A stretch of 64,000 nucleotides of DNA, taken from contig OZ360235.1 in assembly GCA_977017645.1 (NCBI GenBank), forward strand, positions 75,826,001 to 75,890,000, in the 5' to 3' direction. The notes below the pieces were generated by a model that saw only the letters and a program-made list of their open reading frames with translations, was not told the DNA's origin and searched no databases. Both the position numbers and the translations under genes were made by a program. Shown here piece by piece: positions 6,799 to 46,000 of this stretch. This DNA comes from Torpedo marmorata (taxonomy: Eukaryota). Within the stretch, counting starts at the first letter, position 1; each line of letters begins with the position of its first letter.

Positions 6799-6947
6799 TG
6801 TTATGGGAACACGCATGTGCGCGTGATGTCACAAAAGGAGTTACATTTGTATTGCGTGTTCAGTTAGACGCCATCTTGATCAGAATAAAGAGTGCTTACT
6901 GTTTCTCTCGTATGAGGCGATTCTTTAATAGAAATACACGACAGAAT

Positions 6948-13766: not shown

Positions 13767-15073
13767 TATTTCTACCTTTGCTACATAAAGGACACTGTTT
13801 GACCTGCTGAGTTTCTCCAGCATTTGTGTTTTTTGCGATTTATTTCATCCTATTTTGAGGGTGATGGTGTCCTCTCCTGGATACAAATTGGATTGCACTC
13901 CCTGAAAGAAAAGGTATTCAGTGATTTTTATTTATAAATGGAACTCCAGGATTATATCCAACAGGACAGACAATCCTATTTTAAAGCATTTGATTAAAAT
14001 ATGGTGTGAGACTCGTGGAACCTTTGGACTGAAAATGGGATTGTCACCAAAAACACCTTTGAGACAAAATGAACTCATACCCATGACTCTAAACAACAAA
14101 ATTCTAGAGACTTGGCATCATAAAGGGATCCAACATTTGGAAGACTGTTACGAAAAAGGACTTTTCACGTCCTTTGAACAATTGAAGAAGAAATATGACT
14201 TGTCCAGCAAGACCTTCTTCTGTTATCTTCAGTTAAGATCTTTCTTAAAACCAACCTGGGCCCTGAAATGACTTTACCTGTACTTACTGATGTGGAGAAA
14301 CTGCTTCATGAGGGAAATGTATGCCAATTTATTTCTAAAATGTATTCCTTACTGCTGAACGAAGGCCCAAAGCCAGGTTTGCACAAATCTAGAGTGAGAT
14401 GGGAATCAGATCTGAACATAACAATTGACGAACAGCTCTGGTCAGATTTATGTCAAGGAAGTTTGTTAGCTACCATTAATGCCCGGTACAGACTGGTTCA
14501 CTATAATTTCCTCCATCAACTGTACGTCACCCCACAGAAACTACATAAATATAAACCTGAATTGTCAGAGATTTGCTTCAGGTGTGGTATAGAGGTCGGC
14601 TCCTTCCTGCACTCTACCTGGCTTTGTACAAAGGTGAGGCCCTTTTGGTATGACCTCTGTGACACCTTGACCAAGATCATAGGAGTCACCTTCCCATCAG
14701 ATACTGAGCTTTGCTTATTGGGGAATTTCACGAGTGTTAGTAGATCTTTAACCAATTCCCAAATTAAATTTATGGAAATCGCTTTATGTGTGGCCAGGAA
14801 ATGCATAACAGTGACTGTGGTAAACCACTTGAAATACCTGTATATATGTTTATGGTCATCTGGACACGTCCCTTACTGGCTGTACCTGTGGCTCCTCCCA
14901 CAGACCCCTGAATAAAGGCTATTGTGCCACAGCTCCCTCCCCAGTCCAGCACAGACGACCACCAGGAATGTGCATCCATTCCAATGTGAATAAAAGCCTA
15001 CCAGTTCTTGCTTAACTTCTAGTCTTTCAGAGTTATTGATGGTGCATCAATTTTATTCGCATTGTTTTCGATA

Positions 15074-16849
15074 ATGGATCAGTACCTGAAGCCTGAAAAG
15101 TTGGAGGTAGACCCTCAATCATCCGAGGCATCCAACGGTTTCGAACACAGGCTGCGTTGTTTCGAGGCATTCTTGAGGGCCTCCGCTACTGTCGTTCAAT
15201 CTGAGGACGACAAACTGCAAGTACTACATTCCCGAGTCGGGCCCCAGGTGTACTCGATGATCAGGGACGCTGAATCTTACCGGGGGGCCATGGACACGCT
15301 GAAAGTCCAGTAACTGAAGAAGGTAAATGAAGTCTATGCAAGACATCTCCTGGCTACTCGAAAGCAGCGACCTGGGGAATTAGACGGGCCTGTAGCTGCA
15401 AGGCTGTTACGGCCGTGACGTACAACAGAGGACCTCATAAGAGATGCCTATGTTGCCGGTATCCGATCGAACTACATAAGACAGAGACTGTTGGAGCAAG
15501 GTGAGCTCAACTTGCAGAGGGCCGTGGACCTAGCAGGCACGCTAGAAGTGGCCCTCCAAAATATAGACGCGTACTCTGCCGATAGCGCGGCCGCTTCGTG
15601 GTTGCCAAAGGCGCTGCCTGTGGACCACCACCACGTTCCATTAGTGACTCGACCACGGCTGCTATGACCCGCGATTAGCCGAAGTGCTACTTCTGCGGGC
15701 TGGATAAGCACCCCCGGAAACACTGCCCGGCGAAAGACGCGGTCTGCGCTAGCTGCGAGAAGAAGGGGCACTACGCAAAAGTCTGCAAGTCCAAACTGCC
15801 ATCTAGACCCAGCAGCGCCTCGTGTGAGCGGAGGGCGCCGCCATCTTCCCAACTCAGCAGCGCTGCGTGCTAACCGTGGGGGCTGCCATCTTGGACGACG
15901 TCATCTTCCCAACTAAGCAGTGCCACGTGCGAACCATGGGGGCCGCCATCTTGGACGGCGCCATATTGGACGGACCGAACACCCGAACACCACATCACCC
16001 CTACAGAACCCGAGAGCGACTCAGTACTGGCCTCCATCACACTGGATCAAGGGAGCCCCCATCAACTGGCCAAATCGATGATGGACATTGAGGTGGACGG
16101 CCACAAGACGAGCTGCCTCTTTGATAGTGGGAGCACGGAGAGTTTTATACACCCCGACACGGTACAGAGTTACCGCCTTGCGGTAATGCCAGTAAGCCAC
16201 AAAGTCTCCATGGCTTCCAAGTCCCACACAGCAGAGATCCGCGGTTACTGCGTAGTGACCCTGACTGTGCTGGGCACAGAGTATAAACTTTTTAAATTAC
16301 TTGTCATGTCACAGCTCTGCGCGGACGTGCTGCTGGGGCTAGACTTCCAATGTCACCTTAAAAGCGTGATGTTGGAGTACGATGGGCCCCATCCCCCCCT
16401 CACCATCTGTAATCCACAGTTTATAAACTGCCCATCGCAACTCACCCACAGAAGCTCCCCGATCCACCCTCCCATCGCGTCCAGCCAGCAACCCACCGAT
16501 CGCCCACCACGCGCGACCTGCAGCCTTTCTACCGTCCGGATCACCCCCCCCCCCTCACCATCGCTGTTCGTTAACCTTACCCCCGACTGCAAACCCGTGG
16601 CTACCAAAAGTAGGCAATACAGTGCCGGGGACAGGACCTTTATCAGGTCAGAAGTGCAGCAGCTGTTGAAGGAGGGGATTATTGAAGCCAGCACCAGTCT
16701 CTGGAGAGCTCAAGTGGTGATGGTAAAGAATGGGGAGAAGAACAGGATGGTCATCGATTATAGTCAGACCATCAACCGTTATACGCAGCTGGACGCGTAC
16801 CCCCTCCCCTGCATAGCCGACATGGTAAACCAGATCACCCAATACCGGG
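15074..16849 (+). pseudogene. Gypsy B gag, protease and RT N-terminus (disrupted)
   Basis: MDQYLKPEKLEVDP; two Zn knuckles CYFCGLDKHPRKHC and CASCEKKGHYAKVC; LFDSGSTESFI; RMVIDYSQTINRYTQLDAYPLP. Confidence 0.9.
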
Positions 16850-17393
16850 TGTAAGAGCCGTAGGCTTAATTACTTACCTTGGTCGTGGCGCTCCGATGGT
16901 CTCAGTGGGTTGCGGAGGAGTCGCGGTGTTTGTAAGCTGTGCTAGGTTTATTTAGTACTCTGCGCATGCGCAGTTGGGAATTGACGGCAGTGTGCGCGGT
17001 AGAGTATGCGCGGTGGAGTATGCGCGGTGGATTATGCGCATTGAGCATGCGCGAATCGGGAAAAAAGTATTGGAAAAAGATGGCGGCTTAGAGGAGGGTG
17101 AGTGAGATCGCCATGTCTTTTATTGACCGTTTCATTGAACATTTAAACTCGTTTCATTATGGTTTAAAGTCATTTAATTGAACATCTAAATACAGTCAAA
17201 GGAATCGTTTAAAGGAATTCATTAAACATCGTTATCAAGAACTGTTTATTTTCGGGGGGACGTCACGTGATGCCGTAGAGTTAGGACGCAGTAACCCGAC
17301 CCTCCTGGGATTGTTAAAAAAAGTTCGATTAAAAAACGTTTTTTAAAAGTTCTAATTTTCTTTAAAAAGTATTTAAGTACTAGGGAGAAAGTA

Positions 17394-18518
17394 ATGATGC
17401 CTCAAAAAAAAGATAAAACAGCCAAAGCCTTACCTAAAGCTCAACGGAAGGAGAAGATCCTGACTGCAAAAAGGCCTCGACGCCTGGGAGCTGAAGTTCA
17501 AACGGAGCCCCGGGAGGAGGCACCGCTGGTGGGGACATCTGCTGGCACTGCTCGTCCTCGATGGCAAGAACATGGCGTCGGGGAGGAAGTCGGGCCGGCA
17601 CTGCGCATGCGCGAAACTCCGCAGCTATCAGCAGACTCTGCGACGTCGGGACAGGAAGAAACGAGCAGCTCCGATTCGGATGACGAAAGAGGCCAGCTGG
17701 AGGCGGAAGAATTACAACAACAACCGCGGGAAGAACGAATACTATCATTTAAAGGCAAATCACCAGACTATGCAGCTTTGTTAACAATATTGAATGAGTT
17801 AAAGGCTGATATGAAAAATGTTAAAGAAGTGATAAAAGATATGAGGGGCTTAAAGTTAAAAGTGAATAAGATTGAGAATAAAGTTAAGAAAATACAAACT
17901 GACATGGAAACTACCGAAGAGAGAATGGAGGGGGTGGAAAACAATGCTACTGCTTTAGTAATGGAAAATAAGAAGCTTCAACAAAAAGTGGACATATTGG
18001 AGAATTTTAGTAGAAGAAATAATATAAAAATAGTTGGTCTTAAAGAAGAAGAAGAAGGACAAGATATGAGTGCTTTTATGAAGACTTGGATACCGGAGGT
18101 GCTGGGTGCAGATAAGTTTGACCACACAATTGAAATTGAAAGAGCACACAGGGCTCTAAGAGTGAAGCCGTCACAAGACCAGAACCCGCGCTCGATCTTA
18201 GTTAAATTTCTACGTTATCAAGACAGAGAGAGAGTTTTACAACTAGCAATGGAGCAAGCAAGAGATAGACAGGGCCCTTTGATATATAAGGGGGCCAGAA
18301 TTCTTTTTTATCCTGATATAAGCGCTGACTTAATGAAGAGAAGGAAGGAATTCAACCCAGCTAAAAAGACTCTTTGGGAGAAGGGCTACAGATTTGTGTT
18401 GCGACATCCTGCGACCTTGAAGGTCTTCTTACCAGATCAACAAAACAAATTTTTTACAAATTACACCTTGGCAGAGGAATTTGCCAATGAACTTCCGCAG
18501 GCTTCGGATGAGCGTTAG
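17394..18518 (+). CDS. L1 ORF1p (coiled coil, RRM, CTD), intact 374 aa
   Basis: LENFSRRNNIKIVGL, IERAHR, PRSILVKFLRYQDRE, FYPDIS, HPATLKV. Confidence 0.93.
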   Translation: MMPQKKDKTAKALPKAQRKEKILTAKRPRRLGAEVQTEPREEAPLVGTSAGTARPRWQEHGVGEEVGPALRMRETPQLSADSATSGQEETSSSDSDDERGQLEAEELQQQPREERILSFKGKSPDYAALLTILNELKADMKNVKEVIKDMRGLKLKVNKIENKVKKIQTDMETTEERMEGVENNATALVMENKKLQQKVDILENFSRRNNIKIVGLKEEEEGQDMSAFMKTWIPEVLGADKFDHTIEIERAHRALRVKPSQDQNPRSILVKFLRYQDRERVLQLAMEQARDRQGPLIYKGARILFYPDISADLMKRRKEFNPAKKTLWEKGYRFVLRHPATLKVFLPDQQNKFFTNYTLAEEFANELPQASDER

Positions 18519-18974
18519 AAAGAGAATGTTTTATAATTGTTGATGGAATGATATATATCAGTTTGTAACTTTGGTAAAATTGATGATGGATTATTTAGTG
18601 TTTGTATTTATTTTTTAAAAATAATATGTATATATAAAAAATGTTATACCAGGGGGGTCGGGGGGAGGAGATGAGGTCCTGACTTCTACTGTAATCATGT
18701 GTACTTTTGCGACTTCGGTCGTGGCCTATAAAATAGAAGGGGTAGCGCTGTATATTTCAAAAGCGCTAGAGGGGATATAGTTAGATTATTTTTTCATTTT
18801 TGTGGAAGGGGGGGATTGTATTCTTTAATTGTATATTTTTTCTTTTTTGTCTGTATGGATTGCTGGGGGGGACATATGCTGATGCGATGGAGATTGAAGA
18901 ATGAAGTAAAAGGGAGAGAGTTAGGGGTCTGGGCTGGAAGAGGTAACATTAAAAGGAATGAAATATAATCTAAA

Positions 18975-21900
18975 ATGAGTAATATAGTAAGATTCTTGAA
19001 TTTTAATATTAATGGGATAAATGGACCAATTAAGCGGAAAAGGATACTAGCGTATATTAAAAAATTGGGTGTTGATGTGGCTTTTTTACAAGAGACGCAT
19101 TTAATAGAGAAAGAACATTTGAAATTAAAAAGGGACTGGGTGGGGTATGTAGCGGCTTCTTCATTTAACTCCAAGGCAAGGGGTGTGGCAATTTTAATAA
19201 AAAAGAATCTTCCAATTATAATTCAGAATGTTGTGACAGATCCTGCAGGGAGATATGTAATGATTCACTGTCAGATATATTCAGAATTTTGGACTTTTTT
19301 GAATATATATGCTCCCAATACGGATGATGATAAGTTTATTCAAGAGACCTTTCTCAATATAGCGGAAGCGCATGAGAATATTATAATAGGGGGAGACTTC
19401 AACTTTTGTTTAGATCTGGTTTTAGATAAGTCCACAAGAGGAGTGAAGAGAACTAAGGCAGCGAAAGCTACGTTGGTATTAATGAATGATTTAAACTTGA
19501 TTGATGCTTGGAGAAGAATTCATCCTAGGGATAAAGATTTTTCTTTTTACTCTAGCAGACATGACTCTTATTCCAGAATTGATTTATTTTTAGTTTCAGC
19601 TCAATTGCAAGATAGAATTTTAGAAGCAGAGTATAAAGCAAGAATCCTGTCTGACCATTCACATTTATTGATGACAGTTGTTGTACCTGATAAAGAAAAG
19701 TCGATATATAGATGGAGATTAAACCCTTTATTATTAAAAAGAATAGACTTTTGTGATTTTATAAGGAGGCAAATTCAGATATTTTGTGAAACAAATCTAA
19801 ACTCCGTGCCTGATAAATTTGTAATATGGGAAACTTTGAAAGTATATTTAAGAGGTCAAACCATAAGTTACTCTTCAAAAATTAAAAAGGATTATATGAG
19901 AGAAATAGACCAATTAGAAAAGAAATAACGATTCTAGAAAAGGATTTACAAAAGAGGAGCTCTGTAGATAAACGTAGACAATTAACTAATAAAAAACTTC
20001 AATATAATATGTTACAGACTTATAGAATGGGGAAGACTATTACAAGAACCAAGCAAAGATACTACGAGTTAGGTGAACGCTCACATAAAGTATTAGCATG
20101 GCAATTAAAAACAGAACAGGCATTAAGAACAATTAATGCAGTTAAAACTGAGGCTGATATTATTAGTTGTAAACCTCAAATAATAAACGATTCTTTAAAA
20201 AAATTCTATTCTGATTTATACAAATCAGAATCTCTGCAAGATGATAGTAAAATTGATGGATATTTATCACAGATAAATTTACCAAGATTAAATACGCAAG
20301 AGCGATTAGAATTAAGTACCCAATTTACGCAGAGGGAAGTGAAAGATGCAATGAGTTCATTACAAAGTAATAAAGCACCGGGGGAGGATGGTTTTCCACC
20401 AGAGTTTTATAAAGAATTTAAGGAATTATTAATTCCTATTTTTATGGATATGTTACAACAAGAGTCTGTGACTCATACACTTCCAGAATCTTTTTCTACT
20501 GCAATAATTACAGTAATACCAAAAAAAGATAGAGACCCTCTGAAACCTTCATCATATAGACCAATTTCATTATTGAATGCAGATTATAAGATTGTGGCGA
20601 AAATCTTGGCAAATAGGATAACAAAATTTTTGCCAAAATTAGTAAACATGGATCAAACAGGCTTTATAAAAAAGAGACAAGCAGCTGACAATGTAGCAAG
20701 GTTACTTACTATTATTCATTTAGCTCAAAAAAGAAAAGTACTAAGTGTAGCAGTGGCACTAGACGCAGAGAAAGCTTTTGATAGACTAGAATGGGACTTT
20801 TTGTTTAAAGTATTGGAGAAATTTGGATTTGGGAAGATTTATATAGATTGGATTAAAGCATTATATAATGATCCAAAAGCTAAAGTAGTGACTAATGGAC
20901 AAATATCAACTTCGTTCTGCCTGACAAGATCTAGCCGACAGGGATGCCCGTTGTCACCAGCTTTATTTATATTAGCTATAGAACCGTTAGCAGAGGCAAT
21001 TAGAAGTGATTTGGCAATTAAGGGATTTATATTTGGTCAAGAGCAACATAAAATTAGTTTATTTGCGGATGATGTCTTAATATATTTGACGGAGCCTGAG
21101 ACTTCTTTGCAAAGATTGCATTTTAAATTGGAGGAATATGGGAAAGTCTCTGGTTATAAGATAAATTGGGATAAAGTGAAATTATGCCCCTTACAGAGGG
21201 AGATTATACTTTATGTAAAAGAAGTACTCAGTTCAAATGGCCACATAAGGGAATAAAATATCTTGGGGTTCGAACAGATAATAAATTAAAAAAATTATAT
21301 AAATTGAATTATCTACCATTGCTTAAAAAGATTAAAGAAGATTTGGAGAAATGGATTAATTTACCCATTACATTGATTGGAAGAGTTAACTGTATTAAAA
21401 TGAATATATTTCCAAGGATACAGTACCTGTATCAAACTATACCTATTTTATTACCACAGGCTTTTTTTCAGGATTTAAACAAACAAGTGCGAAAATTTCT
21501 TTGGAAAGGTAAAATGTCAAGAGTTTCTATGGAACGTCTAACATGGAAATATCAACTGGGAGGTCTACAACTCCCTAATTTTAAGAATTATTATCGAGCG
21601 GCACAAATGAGATTTGTTACTTCGTTTTTTGAAAGTGAAGTAAGACCTGCATGGGTTGGAATAGAGCTTGGAGAAATAGGAGAAAAGGTACCAGAAGAAT
21701 TTATATACAAATGGAATTCAAAATTATTGATAGGTGCTAAAGAAACGCCGTTGTTAAAACATTTGATTAATGCTTGGAACAAGATTAATGATGAGATAGG
21801 GATGAAAGGAAACATATCACCCAAAATGTCTTTGATACAGAATAATCTTATACCATTTACAAAAGATAATCAATTTTTAAACATATGGTCACAGAAAGGA

Positions 21901-22752
21901 ATAAAGAAGATAGAAGATTGTTATGAAGGGAACTAGTTGATGTCGTTTGTACAATTACGGAATAAATATGGAATACCCAATAACACTCTTTTTTGTTATT
22001 TTCAACTAAGAGGTTATCTAAGAGAAAAACTAGGGCCAGATATGTTGTTACAAGATTGTAGTGAGGTAGAAATTCTTATTAGGAAAGGAAATATTAAAAA
22101 ATTTACTTCTATAATGTACTCTTTGCTACAAAGGGGAACTTTAAAACGAGGACTTCATAAATCTAGACAAAGATGGGAGCAAGATCTTAACGTTACAATT
22201 GATGAAAAAAGATGGTCGGATTTATGTCAAGATAGTATGACTAATACTGTTAATGTAAGATATAGATTAGTACAGTACAATTTTTTACATCAATTATACC
22301 TTACACCACAAAAACTGAACAAGATAAAATCTACGTTATCAAATAGGTGTTTTAGATGTGGCGAAGTGGAGGGAACTTTTTTACATTCAACATGGTTATG
22401 TTCTAAAGTTAAATGTTTTTGGATAGAGTTAGGGAACCGGTTAAAACAAATTACAGGTGTTACATTTCCACAGAATCCTGATTTATTTTTATTAGGAAAT
22501 GTGGAAGGAACTAGACCAAAGTTGAAGTTATCTACATGTCAATTGAAATTTGTAAAAATTGCTTTAGCAGTAGCAAGGAAGTGTATAGCAGTAACTTAGA
22601 AATCAGATACAAATATAAGCATGGATAGATGGAATTCAGAGATGCGGAGCTGTATTCCTTTGGAAAGAATAACATATAATATGAGAAACAAATATGGGAT
22701 ATTTTTGCAAATTTGGCATCCATATATCCAATCATTAGGTATGAATATTTGA
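18975..22752 (+). pseudogene. L1 ORF2p (APE endonuclease, RT, Cys domain), broken by two frameshifts and two stops
   Basis: NINGIN, LQETH, GGDFN, SRIDL, LSDH; SYRPISLLN, DAEKAFD, RQGCPLSP, LFADD; CFRCGEVEGTFLHSTWLC; breaks near 19925, 21180, 21934 and 22597. Confidence 0.95.
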
Positions 22753-23278
22753 ATGTGTTGCTCTACATCCTGGACCCTATTGACTCTCTCAAACTTAAAG
22801 AATAAATATTGTTGAATACCACGCGTCGAGCCGTGGACCCAGCAGCGATCCGTTCAGTTGTTTTTGATAAGAAATATCAATGCCTTCTTTTCTATTTTTC
22901 TTTTAGTTTTTAGTAAGGGGAGGGAGTTAAAGGGAGGGGAAGGGTGGAGGGTGGGCAACTTTACAGAGGGTGGGTTAAGTGAGGGGTTAGATACACTGTA
23001 ATACAAATTATGTCTTTTATATACTGGAATTAATAATGTATACTACGTATGTTGTATTACTGTGAGAAAATTTAAAATTTAAAATAAAATATTTTAAAAA
23101 AAGAACTGTTTATTTCGTTTAAAGAAGATATTTAAGTCATTGAAGATTACTGCAAGTCACATGTGTAAATAAAGTTTTTTGAACATATCGGACTTTGTTA
23201 GTAAATTAATTGAAACGCGTCAAAGACAAGTATCTCACCTAGCCTCCAAGTGACTATTGTTGGATTGAAGTCACTATA

Positions 23279-25375
23279 CCAGGTGTTCTCCACCATCGAC
23301 TTAAAGTCGGCATACCACCAACTACCCATCCGACCGGAGGACCGCCAATACACTGCCTTTGAGGCAGATGGCTGCCTCTATCATTTTCTGAGGGTTCCCT
23401 TTGGTGTCACCAACGGGGTCTCGGTCTTCCAGCGGGAGATGGACTATATGGTTGACCAGTACGGGCTGCAGGCCACATTCCCATATCTGGATAATATCAC
23501 CATTTGCGGCCATGTCCTACAGGATCATGAAGCCAACCTCCAAAAATTCCTCCAGACCGCCAAGCTCCTCAACCTTACTTATAATAAGGATAAATGCGTC
23601 TTTGGCACAACACGCCTGGCTATCCTTGGCTGCGTCGTACAGGACGGAGTAATTGGCCCAGATCCAGACTGCATGTACCCCCTGTTGGAACTCCCCCTTC
23701 CCCACAGCCTCAATGCACTGAAAAGGTGCCTGGGCTTCTTTTCCTATTATTCCCAGTGGGTCCCCAATTATGCGGACAAGGCTCACCCCCTCGTCAAATC
23801 CATCTCTTTTCCCCTGACGTCAGAGGCCCGCGCGGCCTCCAGCCGCATCAAGGCGGACATCGCCAAGGCCACGATGCACGCTTTGGACCAATCCACCCTG
23901 TTCCAGGTGGAGAGCGATGTGTCTGACTTCGCCCTGGCCGCCACCCTCAACCAAGCAGGCAGACCCGTAGCTTTCTTTTCCCAGACCCTCCAGGACCCAG
24001 AAATCCGACATCCCTCTGTCGAGAAAGAGGCCCAAGCCATTGTTGAGGCGGTACAGCACTGGAGGCACTACCTCGCCGAAAAACGATTCACCTTGTTAAC
24101 CGACCAACGTTCAGTTGCGTTTATGTTCAATAACCAACAGCGAGGTAAAATTAAGAATGACAAGATTCTGAGGTGGAGAATCGAACTTTACACCTACAAT
24201 TGCGATATCTTGTACCGGCCCAGTAAATTCAATGAGCCCCCAGATGCCTTTTCCCGCAGAACATGTGCCAGCGCACAAATAGACCGCCTACAAGCCCTCC
24301 ACAGCAACCTCTGCCACGCCGGGGTCACCAGATTCTTCCATTTCTTAAAAGCCCGCAACCTACCTTACTCCATCGAGGAGGTCAGGACCATGACCAGGAA
24401 CTGCCAGATCTGTGCGGAGTGCAAACCACACTTCTACCAACCAGTCAGAGCGCACCTGATAAAAGCCACCCGCCCCTTCGAACGCCTGAGGTTCGACTTC
24501 AAGGGACCCCTTCCCTCCTCTGACCGCAACGTGTACTTCCTCAACATTATTGACGAGTACTCACGTTTCCCGTTCGCGATCCCCTGCCCGGACATGACCA
24601 TGGCCACAGTCATCAAGGTCCTACGCAACCTTTTCACCCTCTTCGGGTACCCCTGCTATATCCATAGCGATCGGGGGTCCTCTTTTATGAGCGATGAACT
24701 GTGTCAATACCTGTTGGCCAGAGGCATCGCCACAAGTAGGACCACCAGTTATAACCCCCAAGGGAACGGGTAGGTGGAGAGGGAGAACGCTACCGTTTGG
24801 AAGGCCACCCTCCTAGCCCTAAGGTCGAGAGGTCTTCCAGTCTCCCGCTGGCAAGTGGTACTCCCTGAGGCACTCCATTCAATCAGATCACTCGTGCACC
24901 GCCACCAATGCCACTCCACATGAGAGAATGTTTTCCTTTCCTAGGAAGTCCACTTCAGGGACCGCGCTGCCGTCCTGGCTGACATCCCCAGGGCCGGTCC
25001 TACTCTGGAGGCATGCGAGGAGCCATAAGCATGACCCACTGGTCGAAAGGGTCCAATACGCCTACGTGACGTACCCTGATGGGCGGGAGGACACGTCTCC
25101 GTTTGGGACCTGGCGCCCTCAGGAGTCCCTGACACCACTGCCGACCGCCCTGCCCCCTCCCCACCTACCGCCACCCACGATGCACCGTTGCCATGGCAAG
25201 TGACCCCAGCTCCGGGGGATGACTTGCCAGATCCTTCGCCGCCACGCATCCACCAAGACAGAGCCGACAACAACACACAGGTGATCCAATCAGGACTGGA
25301 TGCAACAGCTGCGCCACAGCCGGTACTATGACGGACGCAGCGGCAGACCAGATCACCTGAAAGACTGAATCTGTG
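23279..25375 (+). pseudogene. Gypsy B RT, RNase H and integrase (continuation)
   Basis: FSTIDLKSAYHQ, VPFGVTNG, YLDN, RPVAFFS, HxxxxH...CQICAEC, DFKGP, HSDRGSSF. Confidence 0.92.
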
Positions 25376-26145
25376 AGAACTTTAATTCACTTCACCCCGC
25401 AGGACTCTTTTTTTAAAAAGGAGGGGTGAATGTGGTAAACCACTGTAAATACCTGTATATATGTTTATGGTCGTCTGGACACGCCCCTTACTGGCTGTAC
25501 CTGTGGCTCCTCCCACAGACCCCTGAATAAAGGCTATCGTGCCACAGCTCCCTCCCCAGTCCAGCACAGACGACCACCAGGAATGTGCATCCATTCCAAT
25601 GTGAATAAAAGCCTATCAGTTCTTGCTTAACTTCTAGTCTTTCGGAGTTTTTGATGGTGCATTAGTGACATGGAAATCTGATTTCCCTCTCCTCATTGAT
25701 AGATGGTCTTTGGAAATGAACAGTTGTATTCCTCTTGAAAAGATCACATATAGTCTTAGAAAAGGATACAACACCTTTCTGAAAATTTGGCAGCCTTACC
25801 TAGAATATATAGGCACTTCACTGACGCCACCATAGGGATGTGATCATTTCTGGTTAGACAGAAGGCCTCTTTAAAGGATATAACACTGAGTTAGTACAGT
25901 GTCTCTATGTGTTTCACTGTATGCACTGACTGTTTTCTTTCCCTTTAATTGGGTTTATTTAGGAAGGGTAGGGAAGTGGGGATTCTTTGATGTTTTGTGT
26001 TCTGTATAATTGTTAAAAATAAGTTTGAAAATGAAAATAAAATAAAATAAATAAAAGGAGTTCAGTTAGACGCCATCTTTATCAGAATAAAGAGTGCTTA
26101 CTGTTTCTCTCGTGTGAGGCGATTCTTTAATAGAAATACACGACA

Positions 26146-29196: not shown

Positions 29197-29362
29197 GTGA
29201 CAGTCTCACAAAACCCTGGACTGGATTATGAAACTCAATCCCATTACGACTTATTGATCTACATTGAAGATAACAAGGGGTACACTGATTTTCAAACGCT
29301 TACAGTTTTATTAGTCGATGTTAATGAGCCTCCAAGATTTGTGGATAATCTCACCAATGGAG
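29197..29362 (+). CDS. CDHR3: Cadherin-related family member 3-like, internal exon (166 nt, phase 0 to 1)
   Basis: ttttcag|GTG...GGAG|gtaagt; VTVSQNPGLDYETQSHYDLLIYIEDNKGYTDFQTLTVLLVDVNEPPRF with LDYE and DVNEPP cadherin motifs. Confidence 0.85.
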
Positions 29363-29730: not shown

Positions 29731-31148
29731 TGTTTTTACAGGTTTTATGCTCTCATGTACCATAAAAAGTCAAAGAAAGAAATAACTTCCAGTCCAAAAC
29801 AACAAACAATGTGCTGGAAGAACTCAGAAGATTCCGAAAATTTTTTAAGCTCCTCTGTGCAATTGGTTGGTGAAAATTATCCAACAAGAAATCTTGGCTT
29901 TATATTTAAACATTTATTTGTCTGCAAGTTTGAATATTTTATTGCAGTTACAACACAAAATTAGTGTCACCACATCATATTTCCATGGCATCCTGTTCTC
30001 CCAATTCTCAGTTTAGTGATTTCCTTCTAAATTGTTTTCGATGTTATTTTTCAAGTTGTTTGGGTACAAATCGTATCAACAATTTAAGGGTTGACGGCCT
30101 GATGACACTGCAGAAGAGTCATTCTTGGGATATTTTCAAAAATATCTGGTTTCCAAGTAACTGGTTTGTTTTAGATCTATGTGATTGATTCCTGGTGCAG
30201 GAGCACTGAAAATTCAGCACAAATTCTGTATTTTTATTGAAGTATGCGGCATGCATTGACAGAACATTGTCTTCATCTCTCTCTGCCTGCTATCCCTTCA
30301 GCCATTTTCCATTTTTTCCCCATATAGTCAGACAACACAACATTACACATATTATCCAAAAATAGCAACACATCATGCAGACGAAGAAGCTTACAATCTC
30401 AACCACTTTTATCTCAGTTCAGATTTTGTTCTTTTTCTGCGATTGACTTGCCAAAATAAAAATAAACTGCTGCAAAAAACAAAATCTGGCATCAAATTCA
30501 AAATCATCACCATTTTGAGAGAAGCAACAATGCAACAGAAATATTGACAAGTAACAAACTATTCTCTTCTATTCTGTTCTCTTGCAACATTATATGTACA
30601 TGTCATGCACAAAAGTCTGCTGATGACAAACAGGATTATTTTAATTGATAAATGAACGAGAATATCCGTAATGTTCTGGTTCCTGCTCCTCTTCAGCCAA
30701 CAGTTCCACGGACAAATACTGAAAGCAGCAATGTGCAAGTCATTTTGTACCTGTCTTTGATGCTTGTTGGGAACAGCATAGAGGTCAAGTGACAGCACCT
30801 CTGACTTCCTGCAGGACTCACCGCAGGGGTGAGACTTGTTGCCGACCTAAATTGAAAGTGGCAGCTAAGTGTTTTGATTTATTTTAATTAACATAGTCAG
30901 AGAATCATTATTTGTTTCAATCAGGGCCGGATTAAGCTAGGGCGGGCCTGTAGCATATGTTATAAAGGGGCCCTAAATTTAAAAAATACACATAAATATG
31001 AAAACACATAAATTGTTTACTTGCATAGTAAAGTAATTCATTTTTTTCATTTGCTATACAGCCAGATAATACGACAAATATGTCTGACATTTCAGTAATA
31101 GTATTACTTACATGAAGGTATCAATTTCAAATGTCAAAAGTAACAAAA

Positions 31149-34100
31149 TGTAGCCGCGCGCTACTCGAAAGAAGACACACACACGTAGTGTAGTCAGGTT
31201 AAGCTCTGAGTTTTTATTAGGGCTCAGGCCCGACTTTTATATTTGCACTGTTCCCGCCGTGGCCTCTTTTTGCTGACGTCACAACATGCATAACAAAAGC
31301 GGGTTTCCCGCGCGCGGGTACTTTCCTGCATAACAAAACCCTTCTTCCCCGCGCGCTGTCCCTGTCTGTTGGCTGCGCAGCAAGACCAGCGCCATTTTGG
31401 AGTCGCTGGCCTTTAAGCTGCCCTTGCCGTTCACCCGCCGATTCGCTTGTTGGGGCCAGTGCCGCTGCGCGGGCTGCTGGCCTTTGGTTGTGCTCACCGC
31501 TCGGAGCGCCGGCTCGATCGCCACGGCGATATTGGTATTGTTCTTGGTGCCCTCTAGGCAAAGTCTCTGCAGCCTTCGGTGGCCTGCCTCTTCGGCATGG
31601 TGCTGGTGTCTCGACCGGGCGCGCCGGGTCCAGGTGTGCCGGCTTCAGCCTGTCTGTGGTGAAGACCTCTGTCTTGCCTCCGACCTCCAGCTCGAACGTG
31701 GCCCCGTTGTTGCGGATGACCCGGAACGGACCCTCGTATGGCCTCTGAAGCAGTGGACGATGTGGACCCCTGCGAATGAAAACATACTCACAGTCCTGCA
31801 GGTCTCTGGGTATGTTGGTCCTCACGTGTCCGTGCCTGGAAGGTGGAATTGAGGCCAGGTTGCCAACTCTTTCCCTTAGCCTGCTGAGGAACGCTGCAGA
31901 GTCGTCCTGCTGCCCGCCTGGGGATGGTATGAATTCTCCCGGGACCACCATTGGAGCTCCTTAGACGAGTTCGGCCGAAGAGGTGTTGAGGTCCTCCTTG
32001 GGTGCTGTGCGGATGCCCAACAGCGCCCATGGTAGCTCGTCTACCCAGTTGGGACCTTGGAGTCTGGTCATGAGCGCGGTCTTGAGGTGCCTGTGGAAGC
32101 ACTCCACCAATCCATTGGACGGTGGGTAGTAAGCTGTTTGTGATGCAGCTGGGCACCCCACAGGCTGGCGAGGTCGGACCACAGACTGGAGGTGAACTGG
32201 GCCCCTCTGTCGGATGTGATGTGGGATGGTAACCCGAACTGTGCCTCCCAGGACGAGATGAGGGCCCTGGCGCACGAGGTTGTGGACGTGTCTGCTGGCG
32301 GGAATGCTTCTGGCCACCTGGTGAAGCAGTCGACCATCGTGAACAGATAATGGAAACCCTGGGATACCTGCAAGGATCCTACTATGTCCACGTGGATGTG
32401 GTCGAACCTTCGTTCTGCGAGCTCGAAGTGCTGAGGTGGGGTCTTGGTGTGCTGCTGTACCTTGGCTGTTTGGCATTGCATGCACGTCTTCGCCCACCCG
32501 CTGACCTGTTTCCGCAATCCATGCCACACGTATTTGCTGGCCACCAGCCAGACCGTGGTCCTGACGGATGCGTGAGCCAGTCCGTGGATGGAGTTGAAAA
32601 CCTGTCGTCTCCAAGCCGCCGGGACGATGGGTCTGACCTGACCGGTGGCCACGTCGCACAGGAGAGTAGTGTTACCTGTGCCGACTGGGATGTCCTGGAG
32701 CTGCAGTCCCGATATGGCAGTCCTGTACTGGGGCATCTCCTCGTCTTTCTGCTGCGCCTCCGCCAGTGCCACGAAGTCCACTCCCCTTGATAGCGCGTGG
32801 ATACTTTGCCTGGACAGTGCGTCGGCCACCACGTTGTCCTTACCAGAGACGTGCCTTACATCTGTGGTGTACTCTGAGATGTAAGACAGGTGTCATTGCC
32901 TGCAGGCCTACCAGGGGTCCGAGATCTTAGCCAAGGCGAAAGTCAGGGGCTTGTGATCTGTGAAAGCCGTGAAGGACCTTCCCTCTAGGAAGTACCTGAA
33001 GTGGCGGATGGCTAAGTACAGTGCCAGTAGCTCTTTGTCGAAAGCGCTGTACTTCAGTTCTGGAGGCCGCAGATGTTTGCTGAAGAAAGTCAGCGGCCGC
33101 CAACTTCCTTCGATCTGCTGCTCCAGAACTCCGCCGATCGCCATTCCTGAGGCATCCACCATCAGGGCCGTTGGAGCATCTGCCCTGGGATGTGCCAGGA
33201 GAGCGGCGTCCGCCAGGGCTTCCTTGGCCTTCAAAAAGGCTTCCGCTGACTCCTCGTCCCAGGTGATGTCCTTCGCCTTGCTTGCCATCCGGGCAAACAA
33301 GGGCCGCATGATCCGGGCAGCTGAGGGGATGAACCTGTGGTAGAAATTGATCATCCCCACGAACTCCTGCAGTCCCTTGGTCGAGTTGGGTCTGGGGAAC
33401 TTCCGGATGGCCTCCACTTTACTGGGTAGCGGTGTGGCTCCTTCCTTTCCTGCCCAGGAAGTCGATGGCCTCCAATTCGAACTGGAATTTGGCTGGGTTG
33501 ATCGTCAGGCCGAACTCGCTCAGTCGGGTGCAGAGGTTGCGGAGGTGCATCATATGCTCCTGTTTGTTCCTGCTCGCCACCAGGATGTCGTCCAGGTACA
33601 CGAAGGTGCCGTCCAGGTCTTGGCCCACCGCGTCCATGAGTCGCTGGAAGGTCTGTGCGGCATTCTTTAGCCCGAACAGCATTCGGAGGAATTCGAAGAG
33701 GCCGAACGGGGTGATGATGGCAGTCTTGGGGATATCCTCGGGGTGTACCGGGATCTGATGATATCCCCACATGAGGTCCACCTTGGAGAAGATCCTTGCC
33801 CCGTGCAGGTTCGCCGCAAAGTCCTGGATGTGCGGCACGGGGTACCGATCCGGTGTTGTGGCCTCGTTGAGCCGGCGGTAGTCGCCGCATGGTCTCCAGC
33901 CCCCAGTTGCTTTGGGTACCATGTGCAGGGGAGAAGCCCATGGGCTGTCCGACCGTCGTACGATGCCGAGCTCCTCCAGCTTCCTGAATTCCTCCTTCGC
34001 CAGCTGGAGCTTCTCCGGAGAAAGGTGTCTTGCCCTTGCATGGAGCGGCGGGCCCTGGGTCAGGGTGTGGTGCTGTACTCCATGTCGGGGCATCACCGTG

Positions 34101-35673
34101 GTGAATTGGGGGGTGAGCACTGCAGGCAACTCGGCCAGGACCCTGGCGTACTCATTGTCCGATCTCTGCACGGAGTCCAGGTGGAGTGCTGGGAGCCTGG
34201 CGTCTTTGAGGGGGAAGGTTTGAAAAGTCTTGGCATGGACCAATCTCCTTCCCTTGAGGTCCACTAGCAGGCTGTGGGCGCGCAGGAAGTCTGCGCCGAG
34301 GAGCGGCTGTTCCACTGCGGCCAGCGTGAACACCCACGAGAAGGGGCTGCCTCCCAACAGCAGTTGGGCTTTGTGGGTACCGTAGGTCCGAATCGTGCTG
34401 TTGTTGGCAGCCCTCAGCGTGGGGCCCGACTGCCTGTTCCTGGTGTCCTGTCCCGACGGGGGAAGGATGCTGACCTCTGCTCCTGTGTCCACGAGGAAGC
34501 GTCGTCCGGACTGGCGGTCCCAAACGTACAGGAAGCTTGGTGGCCAGCCGTCGTGACCATTAGCGACAGCTGGCCCCGGTGTTTCCCTGAAACGTGCATG
34601 GCGGCCTGCACCGGTGGGCTCAGGTGCCCCATCTCTAGTGGTAGAAACACCACTGGTCGTCTAGATCACCTCCTCTGGGGCGCTGCTGTTCTCTCGACGG
34701 CTCTGCATGGATCTGGCTGCAGGGTTTAGTGACGAGCCCCACGGACACCGAGCACTCTCTCTTCTGTTTCCACAGAACATCCGCTCGTGCTGCGATTTTA
34801 CGGGGGTCGCTGAAATCCGCGTCAGCCAGGAGCAGTTGGATGTCCTCGGACAGATGCTCCAGGAATGCCTGCTCAAACATGATGCAGGGCTCGTGTTTTC
34901 CCAGGAGGGCCAGCATCTCGTTCATGAGGGCTGACGGGGGCCTGCCCCCTAGCCCGTCCTGGTGGAGCAAACGTGCCCCTCTCTCACGCCGTGAGAGCCC
35001 GAAGGTCTCGATCAGCAAGTCCTTGATGGCAGTGTACGCGCCTTCCGATGGGGGCTCCTGGATGAAGTTGGCCACCCGGCCTGCTGTGTCCTGGTCCAGG
35101 GCGCTCACCACGTGGTAGTACCGGGTGGATTCTGCTGTGATCTGCCGGATCTGGAACTGTGCCTCAGCCTGGTCAAACCACATGCGTGGTTGATTCGTCC
35201 AGAAGGTTGGCAGCTTGAGAGCAACCGCGTTGACTGCTGCCTGTTCGCTCATTGTTGGGTTTAGATGCCGTCTAAACCGTCGGGGTCACCAATTGTAGCC
35301 GCGCACTACTTGAAAGAAGACACACACACGTAGTGTAGTCAGGTTAAGCTCTGAATTTTTATTAGGGCTCAGGCCCGACTTTTATATTTGCACTGTTCCC
35401 GCCGTGGCCTCCTTTTGCTGACATCACAACATGCATAACAAAAGTGGGTTACCCGCACGCAGGTACTTTCCTGCATAACAATACCGTTCTTCCCCGCGCG
35501 CTGTCCCTGTCTGTTGGCTGCGCATCAAGGCCAGCGCCATTTTGGGGTCGCTGGCCTTTAAGCTGCCCTTGCCGTTCACCCGCCAGTTCGTTTGCTGGGG
35601 CCAGACCCACTGCGCGGGCTGCTGGCCTTTGGTTGTACTCGCCGCCCGGAGTGCCGGATCGATCGCCGCCACA
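31149..35673 (-). mobile_element. Gypsy LTR retrotransposon C, CsRn1/Kabuki-like
   Basis: LTRs 35294-35673 and 31149-~31524 (about 7% different by manual count), 4-bp TSD AAAA, tRNA-Trp-type PBS TGGTGACCCCGACG at 35278-35291. Confidence 0.92.
31530..35252 (-). pseudogene. Gypsy C gag-pol (disrupted)
   Basis: Gag KLPTFW...WFDQAEAQF and CFYH...CRPPC (CHCC); VDTGAEVS; [15 protein letters not shown]; YSAFDKELLA; HVDIVG, TSDRGAQF, GPF motif. Confidence 0.92.
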
Positions 35674-39751: not shown

Positions 39752-40009
39752 GTAAGTCATTTCCAAAATAGGTAGATGAAAATTCCAAAAAGAGAATCTT
39801 GCTTTTTCCCCATCACCTCTCGCATTTTTCTTTATTGAAGCTGGTGGCCACAAATTGAGATGTAGATTTTCAGCACGTCGTCTTGTACTGTGAGCATAGG
39901 TGGAGTGGGAAAGGAAAGCCATGCTAACTGGACAACACAGGCCTTGCAGAATTTTCCAACAAGCACCTTTTCTCATGAATGAAGAGAAAAAGGAGCTCTG
40001 ATTCCTGCA

Positions 40010-43000
40010 AACACACTCCCCATCCCCACCCCCACCACCGCACTGCTCCCCCCACACCCCCAACCACACTCCCCATCCTCACCACCGCACTGCTCCCCCC
40101 ACACCCCCAACCACACTCCCCATCCCCACCACCGCACTGCCCCCCCACACCCCCAACCACACTCCCCATCCTCACCACCGCACTGCTCCCCCCACACCCC
40201 CAACCACACTCCCCATCCCCACCACCGCACTGCCCCCCCACACCCCCAACCACACTCCCCATCCTCACCACCGCACTGCTCCCCCCACACCCCCAACCAC
40301 ACTCCCCATCCCCACCACCGCACTGCTCTCCCCACACCCCCAACCACACTCCCCATCCTCACCACCGCACTGCTCCCCCCACACCCCCAACCACACTCCC
40401 CATCCTCACCACCGCACTGCTCTCCCCACGCCCCCAACCACACTCCCCATCCCCACCACCGCACTGCTCCCCCCACACCCCCCACACCCCCAACCACACT
40501 CCCCATCCCCACCACCGCACTGTTCCCCCCACACCCCCAACCACACTCCCCATCCCCACCACCGCACTGCTCCCCCCACACCCCCAACCACACTCCCCAT
40601 CCCCACCACCGCACTGCTCTCCCCACACCCCCAACCACACTCCCCATCCCCACCACCGCACTGCTCTCCCCACGCCCCCAACCACACTCCCCATCCCCAC
40701 CACCGCACTGCTCCCCCCACACCCCCAACCACACTCCCCATCCTCACCACCGCACTGCTCCCCCCACACCCCCAACCACACTCCCCATCCTCACCACCGC
40801 ACTGCTCTCCCCACACCCCCAACCACACTCCCCATCCTCACCACCGCACTGCTCTCCCCACACCCCCAACCACACTCCCCATCCTCACCACCGCACTGCT
40901 CTCCCCACACCCCCAACCACACTCCCCATCCTCACCACCGCACTGCTCCCCCCACACCCCCAACCACACTCCCCATCCTCACCACCGCACTGCTCTCCCC
41001 ACACCCCCAACCACACTCCCCATCCTCACCACCGCACTGCTCCCCCCACACCCCCAACCACACTCCCCATCCTCACCACCGCACTGCTCTCCCCACACCC
41101 CCAACCACACTCCCCATCCCCACCACCGCACTGCTCTCCCCACACCCCCAACCACACTCCCCATCCTCACCACCGCACTGCTCCCCCCACACCCCCAACC
41201 ACACTCCCCATCCTCACCACCGCACTGCTCTCCCCACGCCCCCAACCACACTCCCCATCCCCACCACCGCACTGCTCCCCCCACACCCCCCACACCCCCA
41301 ACCACACTCCCCATCCCCACCACCGCACTGTTCCCCTCACACCCCCAACCACACTCCCCATCCTCACCACCGCACTGCTCTCCCCACGCCCCCAACCACA
41401 CTCCCCATCCCCACCACCGCACTGCTCCCCCCACACCCCCCACACCCCCAACCACACTCCCCATCCCCACCACCGCACTGCTCTCCCCACACCCCCAACC
41501 ACACTCCCCATCCTCACCACCGCACTGCTCTCCCACACCCCCAACCACACTCCCCATCCTCACCACCGCACTGCTCCCCCCACACCCCCAACCACACTCC
41601 CCATCCCCACCACCGCACTGCTCTCCCCACACCCCCAACCACACTCCCCATCCCCACCACCGCACTGCTCTCCCCACACCCCCAACCACACTCCCCATCC
41701 CCACCACCGCACTGCTCTCCCCACACCCCCAACCACACTCCCCATCCCCACCACCGCACTGCTCCCCCAACCACACTCCGCATCCCCACTACCACACTGC
41801 TCCCCCCACACCCCCAACCACACTCCGCATCCCCACTACCACACTGCTCCCCCCAGACCCCCAACCACACTCCCCATCCTCACCACCGCACTGCTCCCCC
41901 AACCACACTCCCCATCCCCACCACCGCACTGCTCCCCCAACCACACTCCCCATCCTCACCACCGCACTGCTCCCCCAACCACACTCCGCATCCCCACTAC
42001 CACACTGCTCCCCCACACCCCCAACCACACTCCCCATCCCCACCCCCACCACCGCACTGCTCCCCCCACACCCCCAACCACACTCCCCATCCCCACCCCC
42101 ACCACCGCACTGCTCTCCCCACACCCCCAACCACACTCCCCATCCCCACCCCCACCACCGCACTGTTCCCCCCACACCCCCAACCACACTCCCCATCCCC
42201 ACTACCACACTGCTCCCCCCACACCCCCAACCACACTCCCCATCCTCACCACCACACTGCTCTCCCCACACCCCCAACCACACTCCCCATCCCCACCACC
42301 GCACTGCTCTCCCCACACCCCCAACCACACTCCCCATCCCCACCACCGCACTGCTCTCCCCACACCCCCAACCACACTCCCCATCCCCACCACCGCACTG
42401 CTCTCCACACACCCCCAACCACACTCCCCATCCCCACCACCGCACTGCTCCCCCCACACCCCCAACCACACTCCCCATCCCCACCACCGCACTGCTCTCC
42501 CCACACCCCCAACCACACTCCCCATCCTCACCACCGCACTGCTCCCCCCACACCCCCAACCACACTCCCCATCCCCACCACCGCACTGCTCTCCCCACAC
42601 CCCCAACCACACTCCCCATCCTCACCACCGCACTGCTCCCCCCACACCCCCAACCACACTCCCCATCCTCACCACCGCACTGCTCCCCCCACACCCCCAA
42701 CCACACTCCCCATCCTCACCACCACACTGCTCCCCCCACACCCCCAACCACACTCCCCATCCCCACCACCACACTGCTCCCCCCACACCCCCAACCACAC
42801 TCCCCATCCCCACCACCGCACTGCTCCCCCCACTACCGCACTGTTCCCCCCACACCCCCAACCACACTCCCCATCCCCACCACTGCACTGCTCCCCCCAC
42901 ACCCCCAACCACACTCCCCATCCCCACTACCGCACTGCTCCCCCCACACCCCCCACACCCCCAACCACACTCCCCATCCCCACCACCGCACTGTTCCCCC

Positions 43001-46000
43001 CACACCCCCAACCACACTCCCCATCCTCACCACCGCACTGTTCCCCCCACGCCCCCAACCACACTCCCCATCCTCACCACCGCACTGTTCCCCCTACACC
43101 CCCAACCACACTCCCCATCCCTACTACCGCACTGCTCCCCCCACGCCCCCAACCACACTCCCCATCCCCACCACCGCACTGTTCCCCCCACGCCCCCAAC
43201 CACACTCCCCATCCCCACCACCGCACTGTTCCCCCCACACCCCCAACCACACTCCCCATCCCCACCACCGCACTGTTCCCCCCACGCCCCCAACCACACT
43301 CCCCATCCCCACCACCGCACTGTTCCCCCCACACCCCCAACCACACTCCCCATCCCCACCACCACACTGTTCCCCCCACACCCCCAACCACACTACCCAT
43401 CCCCACCACTGCACTGCTCCCCCCACACCCCCAACCACACTCCCCATCCCCACCACCGCACTGCTCCCCCAACCACACTCCCCATCCCCACCACCGCACT
43501 GCTCCCCCAACCACACTCCGCATCCCCACTACCACACTGCTCCCCCACACCCCCAACCACACTCCCCATCCCCACCCCCACCACCGCACTGCTCCCCCCA
43601 CACCCCCAACCACACTCCCCATCCCCACCCCCACCACCGCACTGCTCTCCCCACACCCCCAACCACACTCCCCATCCCCACCCCCACCACCGCACTGCTC
43701 CCCCCACACCCCCAACCACACTCCCCATCCCCACTACCACACTGCTCCCCCCACACCCCCAACCACACTCCCCATCCTCACCACCACACTGCTCTCCCCA
43801 CACCCCCAACCACACTCCCCATCCCCACCACCGCACTGTTCCCCCCACACCCCCAACCACACTCCCCATCCCCACCACCGCACTGTTCCCCCCACACCCC
43901 CAACCACACTCCCCATCCCCACCACCGCACTGCTCTCCCCACACCCCCAACCACACTCCCCATCCCCACCACCGCACTGCTCTCCACACACCCCCAACCA
44001 CACTCCCCATCCCCACCACCGCACTGCTCCCCCCACACCCCCAACCACACTCCCCATCCTCACCACTGCACTGCTCCCCCCACACCCCCAACCACACTCC
44101 CCATCCCCACTACCGCACTGCTCCCCCCACACCCCCCACACCCCCAACCACACTCCCCATCCCCACCACCGCACTGTTCCCCCCACACCCCCAACCACAC
44201 TCCCCATCCCCACCACCGCACTGTTCCCCCCACACCCCCAACCACACTCCCCATCCCTACTACCGCACTGCTCCCCCCACGCCCCCAACCACACTCCCCA
44301 TCCCCACCACCGCACTGTTCCCCCCACGCCCCCAACCACACTCCCCATCCCCACCACCGCACTGTTCCCCCCACACCCCCAACCACACTCCCCATCCCCA
44401 CCACCGCACTGTTCCCCCCACGCCCCCAACCACACTCCCCATCCCCACCACCGCACTGTTCCCCCCACACCCCCAACCACACTCCCCATCCCCACCACCA
44501 CACTGCTCCCCCTACACCCCCAACCACACTCCCCATCCCCACCACCGCACTGTTCCCCCCACACCCCCAACCACACTCCCCATCCCCACCACCGCACTGT
44601 TCCCCCCACACCCCCAACCACACTCCCCATCCCCACCACCGCACTGCTCCCCCAACCACACTCCCCATCCTCACCACCGCACTGCTCCCCCAACCACACT
44701 CCGCATCCCCACTACCACACTGCTCCCCCACACCCCCAACCACACTCCCCATCCCCACCCCCACCACCGCACTGCTCCCCCCACACCCCCAACCACACTC
44801 CCCATCCCCACCCCCACCACCGCACTGCTCTCCCCACACCCCCAACCACACTCCCCATCCCCACCCCCACCACCGCACTGTTCCCCCCACACCCCCAACC
44901 ACACTCCCCATCCCCACTACCACACTGCTCCCCCCACACCCCCAACCACACTCCCCATCCTCACCACCACACTGCTCTCCCCACACCCCCAACCACACTC
45001 CCCATCCCCACCACCGCACTGCTCTCCCCACACCCCCAACCACACTCCCCATCCCCACCACCGCACTGCTCTCCACACACCCCCAACCACACTCCCCATC
45101 CCCACCACCGCACTGCTCCCCCCACACCCCCAACCACACTCCCCATCCTCACCACCACACTGCTCTCCCCACACCCCCAACCACACTCCCCATCCCCACC
45201 ACCGCACTGTTCCCCCCACACCCCCAACCACACTCCCCATCCTCACCACCGCACTGCTCCCCCCACACCCCCAACCACACTCCCCATCCTCACCACCGCA
45301 CTGCTCTCCCACACCCCCAACCACACTCCCCATCCCCACCACCGCACTGCTCCCCCCACACCCCCAACCACACTCCCCATCCCCACCACCACACTGCTCC
45401 CCCCACACCCCCAACCACACTCCCCATCCCCACCACCGCACTGCTCCCCCCACTACCGCACTGTTCCCCCCACACCCCCAACCACACTCCCCATCCCCAC
45501 CACTGCACTGCTCCCCCCACACCCCCAACCACACTCCCCATCCCCACTACCGCACTGCTCCCCCCACACCCCCAACCACACTCCCCATCCCCACCACCGC
45601 ACTGCTCCCCCCACACCCCCAACCACACTCCCCATCCCCACCACCGCACTGCTCCCCCCACACCCCCAACCACACTCCCCATCCCCACCACCGCACTGTT
45701 CCCCCCACACCCCCAACCACACTCCCCATCCCTACTACCGCACTGTTCCCCCCACACCCCCAACCACACTCCCCATCCCCACCACCGCACTGCTCCCCCC
45801 ACACCCCCAACCACACTCCCCATCCCCACCACCGCACTGTTCCCCCCACACCCCCAACCACACTCCCCATCCCCACCACCGCACTGTTCCCCCCACACCC
45901 CCAACCACACTCCCCATCCCTACTACCGCACTGCTCCCCCCACGCCCCCAACCACACTCCCCATCCCCACCACCGCACTGTTCCCCCCACGCCCCCAACC

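Follow-up and report, generated by a model that had tools for sequence, protein, structure and literature searches.

The window, by which we mean the whole 64,000-nt stretch of Torpedo marmorata DNA analysed here, holds between 6858 and 26145 a nested stack of mobile elements: Gypsy A, within it a LINE-1-like element, within that element B, and within element B a second LINE-1-like element (~16835–23100). Gypsy A is represented by matching LTR pieces at 6858–6943 and 26060–26145, with a TGG site at 6948; from features of its gag we take it to be Mag-type. Gypsy C lies farther along, on the minus strand (31140–35667). It is CsRn1-like, with a tRNA-Trp-type site and LTRs that are 92% identical.

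Element B, the ‘Gypsy B’ of an earlier note on this DNA, is a Ty3/Gypsy LTR element: TG...CA LTRs, a target duplication, a polypurine tract and the order gag–PR–RT–RH–IN are all present, and among solved structures Ty3 Gag-Pol is the best match to a full-length relative. All of its features are on the plus strand. The left target-site duplication, GTGAC (14811–14815), recurs as an identical 5-mer at 25665–25669. The 5′ LTR (14816–15049, 234 nt, TG...CA) ends where the earlier note had placed its end, with the terminal CA at 15049; BLAST against the 3′ LTR finds nine differences, and family copies have the same boundaries. The gag start (15074–15313), identified from homologous N-termini in relatives, is broken by a stop in the window copy. 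Protease and the beginning of RT follow (15874–16854), and near 16832 the element is split by the second LINE-1-like insertion, of ~6.3 kb. The remaining RT (with a YLDN motif), RNase H and the integrase core occupy 23214–24773; full-length relatives are without a chromodomain. A polypurine tract, recognized from its sequence, lies at 25415–25426 and the 3′ LTR, in which the terminal CA has become TA, at 25431–25664.

Pairing at the primer site

Immediately past the 5′ LTR, where the TGG of a tRNA primer-binding site would be expected, element B has none, as had been claimed: TGG follows the LTR in 0 of its 30 closest genomic copies, and directly follows it in both Gypsy A and Gypsy C. The position is occupied instead by a sequence complementary to the element’s own LTR. 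After a single unpaired A (15050) comes the primer-binding position, ‘arm 2’ (15051–15064), the complement of ‘arm 1’ (14982–14995) within the LTR; arm 1 is the predicted 3′ end of a self-primer. The earlier note described the two as pairing over 14 nt with one G:U. This is correct for the window copy, where the G:U is due to G15059, and is not the state of the family. Complementarity is perfect in 24 of the 30 closest copies, which were fetched individually (40 were scored, of 3,398 candidates in the genome); three carry the G variant, the window copy included, and three have one change in arm 1. Arm 1 does overlap an AATAAA, the poly(A) signal at 14989–14994, and the same arm is present in the 3′ LTR with no arm 2 downstream of it, so that the partner strand is missing there, as had also been noted. 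Complementarity of this length is not readily obtained by chance: when the LTR of a family copy was dinucleotide-shuffled 20,000 times, a 14-nt complement to the 25-mer that follows the LTR never appeared, the maximum being 13.

Folding predicts one long hairpin. The z-score for 14960–15090 is –2.26, and the 5′ 148 nt are predicted to form a hairpin of –33 to –38 kcal/mol. Between the arms lies a loop (14996–15050) made up of the remainder of R, U5 and the spacer A, the predicted template for minus strong-stop DNA. According to the folds and to base counts in 21 arm types, it opens with a predicted stem-loop at a conserved (G/A)CC. A second helix, of 7 bp, is predicted between 14974–14980 and the gag start region; it reads ATCCAT/ATGGAT in element B and CTCCAT/ATGGAG in one sister family.

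The two segments, whose covariation the earlier note had put forward as a test, change together, both within the host genome (eight arm types) and in other contigs (21 LTR families). Searches with gag added 60 host loci, for a total of 90, of which 69 are in register and 21 were excluded for loss of the LTR or of anchor motifs. Pairing is perfect over 14 nt in 56 of the 69, and each of the eight arm types has its own perfect partner: CAATGTG/CACATTG, TTTTGCC/GGCAAAA, TATTGTT/AACAATA and TGTAGCT/AGCTACA, for example, all precede the common AATAAAA/TTTTATT. Sister families within this one genome thus differ at up to 6 of the 14 positions of the primer site, always in a way that matches the family’s own LTR.

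Outside the host, gag alignments were too variable for searching, and we used an alignment of pol. This provided 80 metagenome loci (the best 80 of 491 confirmed) and eight genome-contig loci. A gag start could be placed in 41 loci, and 37 of these have at least 120 nt of upstream DNA. In 33 of the 37, a helix is present whose 3′ arm begins one base after CA (CA-N-TTT..., paired to an arm in the LTR); the other four resemble mutated copies of helix-bearing families. Over positions 1–13 in 21 LTR families, 266 of 273 positions form Watson–Crick pairs. When partners are swapped between families as a control, pairing at 12 or more of the 13 positions occurs in 15 of 420 combinations, compared with 20 of 21 true partners. 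G:U pairs are nearly absent from the helix (2 of 257 predicted arm pairs) and common in stems of the loop (41 of 242). The scarcity would be expected if arm 1 serves as the template from which arm 2 is copied, though the comparison sets a helix that was selected against stems that are predicted.

Arm 1 ends with AATAAA or ATTAAA in most families, and with GTTAAA, TTTAAA or GATAAA in several. In the non-host relatives (L062–L148), an AG located 11 nt upstream of the end of the arm is strongly conserved (A in 17 and G in 19 of 21 arm types), as is a (G/A)CCT immediately past arm 1; these could possibly be cleavage or initiator motifs. An 11-nt primer of the Tf1 kind, starting at the conserved AG, was considered and not adopted: pairing remains at 90% to position 13 and stays above the swapped level to about position 16. 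Relatives with species names (rays, a catshark, a sea anemone and a nematode) are known as proteins only, without DNA context, and the viral contigs searched contained no relative. Members of the clade (L141–L148) lie in contigs filed under bacterial MAGs, where they are probably host contamination of the assemblies.

Covariation across eight arm types and 21 families makes a fixed host RNA a most unlikely primer. One could still suppose that a host tRNA half, or some other small RNA, primes synthesis and that the match to the LTR is secondary, and half-tRNA priming does exist in Copia lineages (PMC6317226). We regard this as extremely improbable. A site that varies at up to six positions between sister families, each variant matching its own LTR, is difficult to reconcile with such a primer, and the over-run copies described below carry LTR leader, not tRNA. 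The longest match between the post-LTR site of element B’s family and 53 distinct host tRNA sequences is 6 nt (8 nt for sister families); these sequences come from 59 genes representing only 14 anticodon types, a partial sample from which the cognate tRNA of the positive controls is absent.

Transcript ends and fossil junctions

Two kinds of aberrant copy in the host genome bear on where the transcript begins and ends. The first is a LINE-type retrocopy of the short LTR RNA of a sister family (L358:1425–1535; G000:C39:87710993, minus strand), flanked by a 13-bp target duplication. It begins with one extra G, and then with the base equivalent to 14943; its A-tail starts 18–20 nt past arm 1. It shows that polyadenylated short RNAs consisting of R alone, apparently capped, were made. 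From this one retrocopy and from the clustering of junctions described next, both in the host genome, we infer that transcription starts at 14943, the A of CCAGTCC, which would also be the 5′ end of the primer and would put arm 1 at nt 40–53 of the RNA. A TATA-like sequence (14911–14918), kept in sister families and putatively functional, lies 32 nt upstream. The poly(A) site would fall at ~15013–15015. A start at the Inr-like CCATTC (14978) was also considered; junction ends lend it no support.

The second kind we term ‘fossil junctions’. At 92 genomic sites, arm 2 runs on into the LTR leader in reverse complement, and the same pattern written backwards, as a control, occurs at none. The pattern is blind to over-runs of less than 21 nt in total. 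We examined 90 of the 92 sites together with L059, which is one of the 92; two proved to be an unrelated LINE. At L059 the loop between the arms is exactly inverted. Arm 1 there leads directly into the LTR end in reverse complement, the order expected where a primer is attached to strong-stop DNA. The primer side extends to the start of the LTR in about two-thirds of the junction copies. These fit strand transfer after copying of the primer, but could also have arisen where DNA folded back, or the template was switched, at the 14-bp inverted repeat, so they are not diagnostic. With one tandem duplicate removed, 29 junction copies end between 22 and 140 nt from the arm end, three of them being plain deletions inside full U3. 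Eleven of the 29 end at 50–55 nt, a concentration that 100,000 uniform simulations never reached; those extending no farther than 55 nt number 21 (p ~1e-6). Leader-copy ends cluster, that is, at 14943 (position –53 from the arm end) and thin out past it.

Twelve copies have a fuller structure: host flank, the whole 5′ LTR, A, arm 2, 21–66 nt of leader copy, and then a jump to sense gag or pol. One of the 12 was assigned by eye. Eleven stop at or before 55 nt, and one (L254) passes the start by 13 nt. Such copies are expected if plus strong-stop DNA copies the attached primer beyond the length of the site and then mislands in the second transfer. For Tf1, PMC11042837 reports that about half of the cDNA retains a copy of the primer-binding site at its 3′ end.

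The start-site base may have a second role, as a hot spot for slippage. A 33-nt deletion, with its ends at the TATA-like element and the start site, is found in 3′ LTRs of different subfamilies (L355, L359, L360, L276; L365–L368), and one event in the cluster of 11 belongs to this type. The breakpoints of junction copies carry microhomology. Genome-wide, eight breaks fall at the start and three at a control site in U3, counts too small and mixed to be informative. We considered whether the 33-nt deletion is an error of the first transfer and rejected this, the 5′ LTR being normal in both of the elements where one was found. Separately, 11 solo-type LTRs (L195, L198, L202, L218, L224, L247, L250, L252, L260, L261 and L268) show a recurring rearrangement in which arm 1 is followed directly by an inverted duplicate of the LTR end. 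Their 5-bp duplications are perfect in eight and have one mismatch in three, and arm 2 follows in none.

The junctions fix the sequence of the primer and its 5′ end; they do not separate cutting in cis from priming by another element-derived RNA. The primer could be supplied in trans, or from the 3′ end of the transcript: a short capped R-only RNA, a co-packaged second RNA, or the 3′ copy of R would anneal to arm 2 and then be trimmed. Short polyadenylated R RNAs exist, as the L358 retrocopy attests, some junction copies have U3 and polypurine tract on the primer side, and covariation and leader-copy fossils are equally compatible with such a source. We nonetheless think it unlikely. The hairpin predicted to form in cis should be stable, and it would occupy arm 2; the folds predict that the conserved (G/A)CC stem stacks immediately against the helix; and leader copies whose ends coincide with the start site suit a 5′ piece of the RNA, not a primer made from 3′ R.

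The earlier note also proposed that the helix masks the poly(A) signal of the 5′ LTR, and this stands in part. The AATAAA within the arm works, in that the RNA copied at L358 was polyadenylated ~18–20 nt downstream of it, and the arm 1/arm 2 helix would probably hide the signal in the 5′ LTR. With AAUAAA inside the helix, and with arm 2 absent after 3′ and solo LTRs, polyadenylation at the 5′ LTR alone would be suppressed. The proposal fits less well those relatives whose arms end in non-canonical hexamers.

Might masking, of the poly(A) signal and perhaps of the AUG, be all that the helix does? Another primer would then be in use, and the junction copies would be DNA-level fold-backs at an inverted repeat. 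A functional signal at the arm end of most families (AATAAA or ATTAAA) agrees with this, as does the simple inversion of the between-arm loop at L059. Several observations, however, make it distinctly improbable. In 33 of 37 loci, arm 2 begins exactly one base past the terminal CA, the position required of a primer site, and nothing else that could serve as one is seen. The arm closes with GTTAAA, TTTAAA or GATAAA in several families. A helix kept by selection alone should tolerate G:U pairs as the loop stems do, and fold-back does not predict the drop in leader-copy ends at the start site.

A model for self-priming

We conclude that the pairing is real throughout the clade and, reasoning from sequence, that element B very probably primes its own reverse transcription, as the earlier note had suggested. 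Clade-wide covariation, the near-absence of G:U from the helix, and genomic copies in which arm 2 continues into a copy of the leader all support this. The particular form of self-priming that we favor, and consider probable for the clade as a whole, dispenses with tRNA: minus-strand synthesis would be primed by a cut ~53-nt piece from the 5′ end of the element’s own RNA.

In outline, this model would work as follows. RNA starting at 14943 would fold so that nt 40–53 pair with the primer site. It would be cut just past ...AAUAAAA (after 14995), the presumptive cutter being the element’s RNase H by analogy with Tf1, for which RNase H is cited in that role in PMC4600332 and PMC5341516. The resulting capped piece of ~53 nt would prime ~55 nt of strong-stop DNA, and this would transfer to the 3′ LTR by way of the ~18 nt that separate the cut from the poly(A) site. 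The primer would next be copied in plus-strand synthesis, ordinarily for only ~14 nt of its considerable length, and in this way arm 2 would be rewritten from arm 1 in every cycle, which would account for the strictness of the Watson–Crick covariation. Occasionally the plus strand would over-run into the leader, giving rise to fossil junctions. The same helix would conceal AAUAAA in the 5′ LTR only, and the second, short helix is predicted to lie over the gag AUG.

We also put forward a broader reading, tentatively, as one that may well prove wrong. According to this, a large clade of animal Gypsy elements evolved tRNA-free priming separately from Tf1/sushi, with a long capped primer that ends at the poly(A) signal. 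A single hairpin would serve as primer, as silencer of 5′ polyadenylation and as cover for the gag AUG; the cut would be the switch from messenger to template; and mis-copied insertions would record the primer’s 5′ end.

Relation to known elements

In trees of RT–RNase H (one of 64 of 119 rows, another of 33, redundant or short rows being excluded; both unrooted and without Tf1 and sushi themselves), element B and all arm-bearing loci form a single clade (100/100) that excludes the chromodomain-bearing elements, the Mag-type elements and Gypsy C. The earlier note held that the gag of element B does not look sushi-like; for its RT, nesting with six chromodomain-bearing references, which are algal or unnamed, is rejected (p-AU 4e-6). 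A sister relationship of the clade to chromoviruses (p-AU 0.21) or to Mag (p-AU 0.15) is not rejected in the unrooted tree. The chromodomain (PF00385) was found in 0 of 120 listed relatives and in 0 of six that were rescanned. A sushi-like reference was sought in the host genome as well: Chromo matches there are host genes, Retrotrans_gag matches are mostly Mag-type, and DUF4939 gave none, its control being silent too. The gag N-terminus of element B presumably resembles those of Mag-type gags, a resemblance that we treat as a lead only. Mag and CsRn1 elements are, like element B, animal Ty3/Gypsy elements that are not chromoviruses, and their representatives in the window, Gypsy A and Gypsy C, have TGG sites and fall outside the element B clade (100/100).

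Known self-priming, according to the sources we used, is placed in Tf1/sushi, Tcn1 and TAR (PMC3601003, PMC6317226, PMC13524379, PMC6934838, PMC5006619, PMC6238403, PMC2582038, PMC5341516, PMC4600332, PMC4558846, PMC11042837, PMC5445492, PMC12471100, bioRxiv 2022.12.06.519325). Tf1 is described as the only element for which it has been shown; for the chromovirus relatives of Tf1, and for a single Copia lineage of plants, it has been deduced (PMC6317226; bioRxiv 2022.12.06.519325). In Tf1 and Tf2 of Schizosaccharomyces pombe, Tj1, Tosmo/Tcry and Tf1/sushi chromoviruses, the site after CA is complementary to the 5′ LTR, and RT is reported to cut the self-primer (PMC5341516, PMC4600332 and bioRxiv 2022.12.06.519325). 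Element B resembles these in having no tRNA site and a primer site directly after CA that pairs with its own 5′ LTR. It differs from them in that its clade is without a chromodomain and has an RT motif that is mostly YLDN. The self-primer of Tf1 is the 5′ end of the RNA, whereas the arm of element B appears to lie at nt 40–53 and ends in the poly(A) signal. Tf1 is said to form a three-duplex ‘pretzel’, in which both flanks of the primer-binding site pair with LTR downstream of the primer; element B is predicted to form one long hairpin, in which an outer helix joins the downstream flank to sequence upstream of the arm. In how it works, then, element B is like Tf1, yet on the features tested it is not a Tf1/sushi member. 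What the evidence suggests to be new, relative to known self-priming, is the length of the primer and the place where it ends, the poly(A) signal; the support for this is indirect.

For plant elements (Tcn1, a Gypsy; TAR, Houba and Osr-1, all Copia), the text of PMC6317226 that we used predicts self-priming where post-LTR sequence and 5′ LTR are complementary over 10 nt or more. Tcn1 groups with Tf1/sushi and TAR is a Copia, both from plants, whereas element B is an animal Gypsy; and for neither does that text, unlike our analysis of element B, describe an overlap with the poly(A) signal or a primer 5′ end. The CsRn1 clade has a tRNA-Trp primer site, which that of Gypsy C matches, and a 4-bp target duplication (PMC2582038), whereas element B has no TGG and a 5-bp duplication. 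Saci2/lennie of flatworms is an unplaced animal Gypsy clade with a single gag-pol frame and short LTRs (PMC12471100); a tRNA-Leu site and mostly 4-bp target duplications are reported for it in PMC4558846, in contrast to the 5 bp of element B, a comparison made from published descriptions. The fungal GalEa elements, with a Conserved Hairpin Site, and the Dictyostelid Skipper, with a polypyrimidine site, also are without a tRNA site, and unusual priming has been proposed for both (PMC5445492, PMC5006619). Their authors found no complementarity to the LTR, the very feature that defines element B. Outside subscription journals and the entries of Repbase and GyDB, we found no account in the literature of how the element B clade is primed.

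A second widespread clade of self-priming Gypsy elements, in animals, would if true bear on whether priming by tRNA is ancestral or derived, a matter that PMC3601003 leaves open. 3′ tRNA fragments would find no target site in self-primed elements, and these would be missed or mis-assigned by annotation pipelines for which a tRNA primer-binding site is a requirement. Coupling of the primer to the poly(A) signal, if true, is a compact solution to premature polyadenylation in the 5′ LTR. Aberrant insertions, read as fossil reverse-transcription intermediates, allowed the primer and the start to be mapped without an active element, an approach applicable to other families. The element B clade is very abundant in this host: 28,326 LTR junctions of the element B group match the exact pattern in the genome.

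Elsewhere in the window, at ~39900–46750, is a long tandem array of 47-bp repeats, with plus-strand stop-free frames of more than 2,200 codons. A short exon-like stretch at 29198–29362 resembles what we take to be part of a cadherin-type repeat, suggesting that the window lies within the introns of a host gene.
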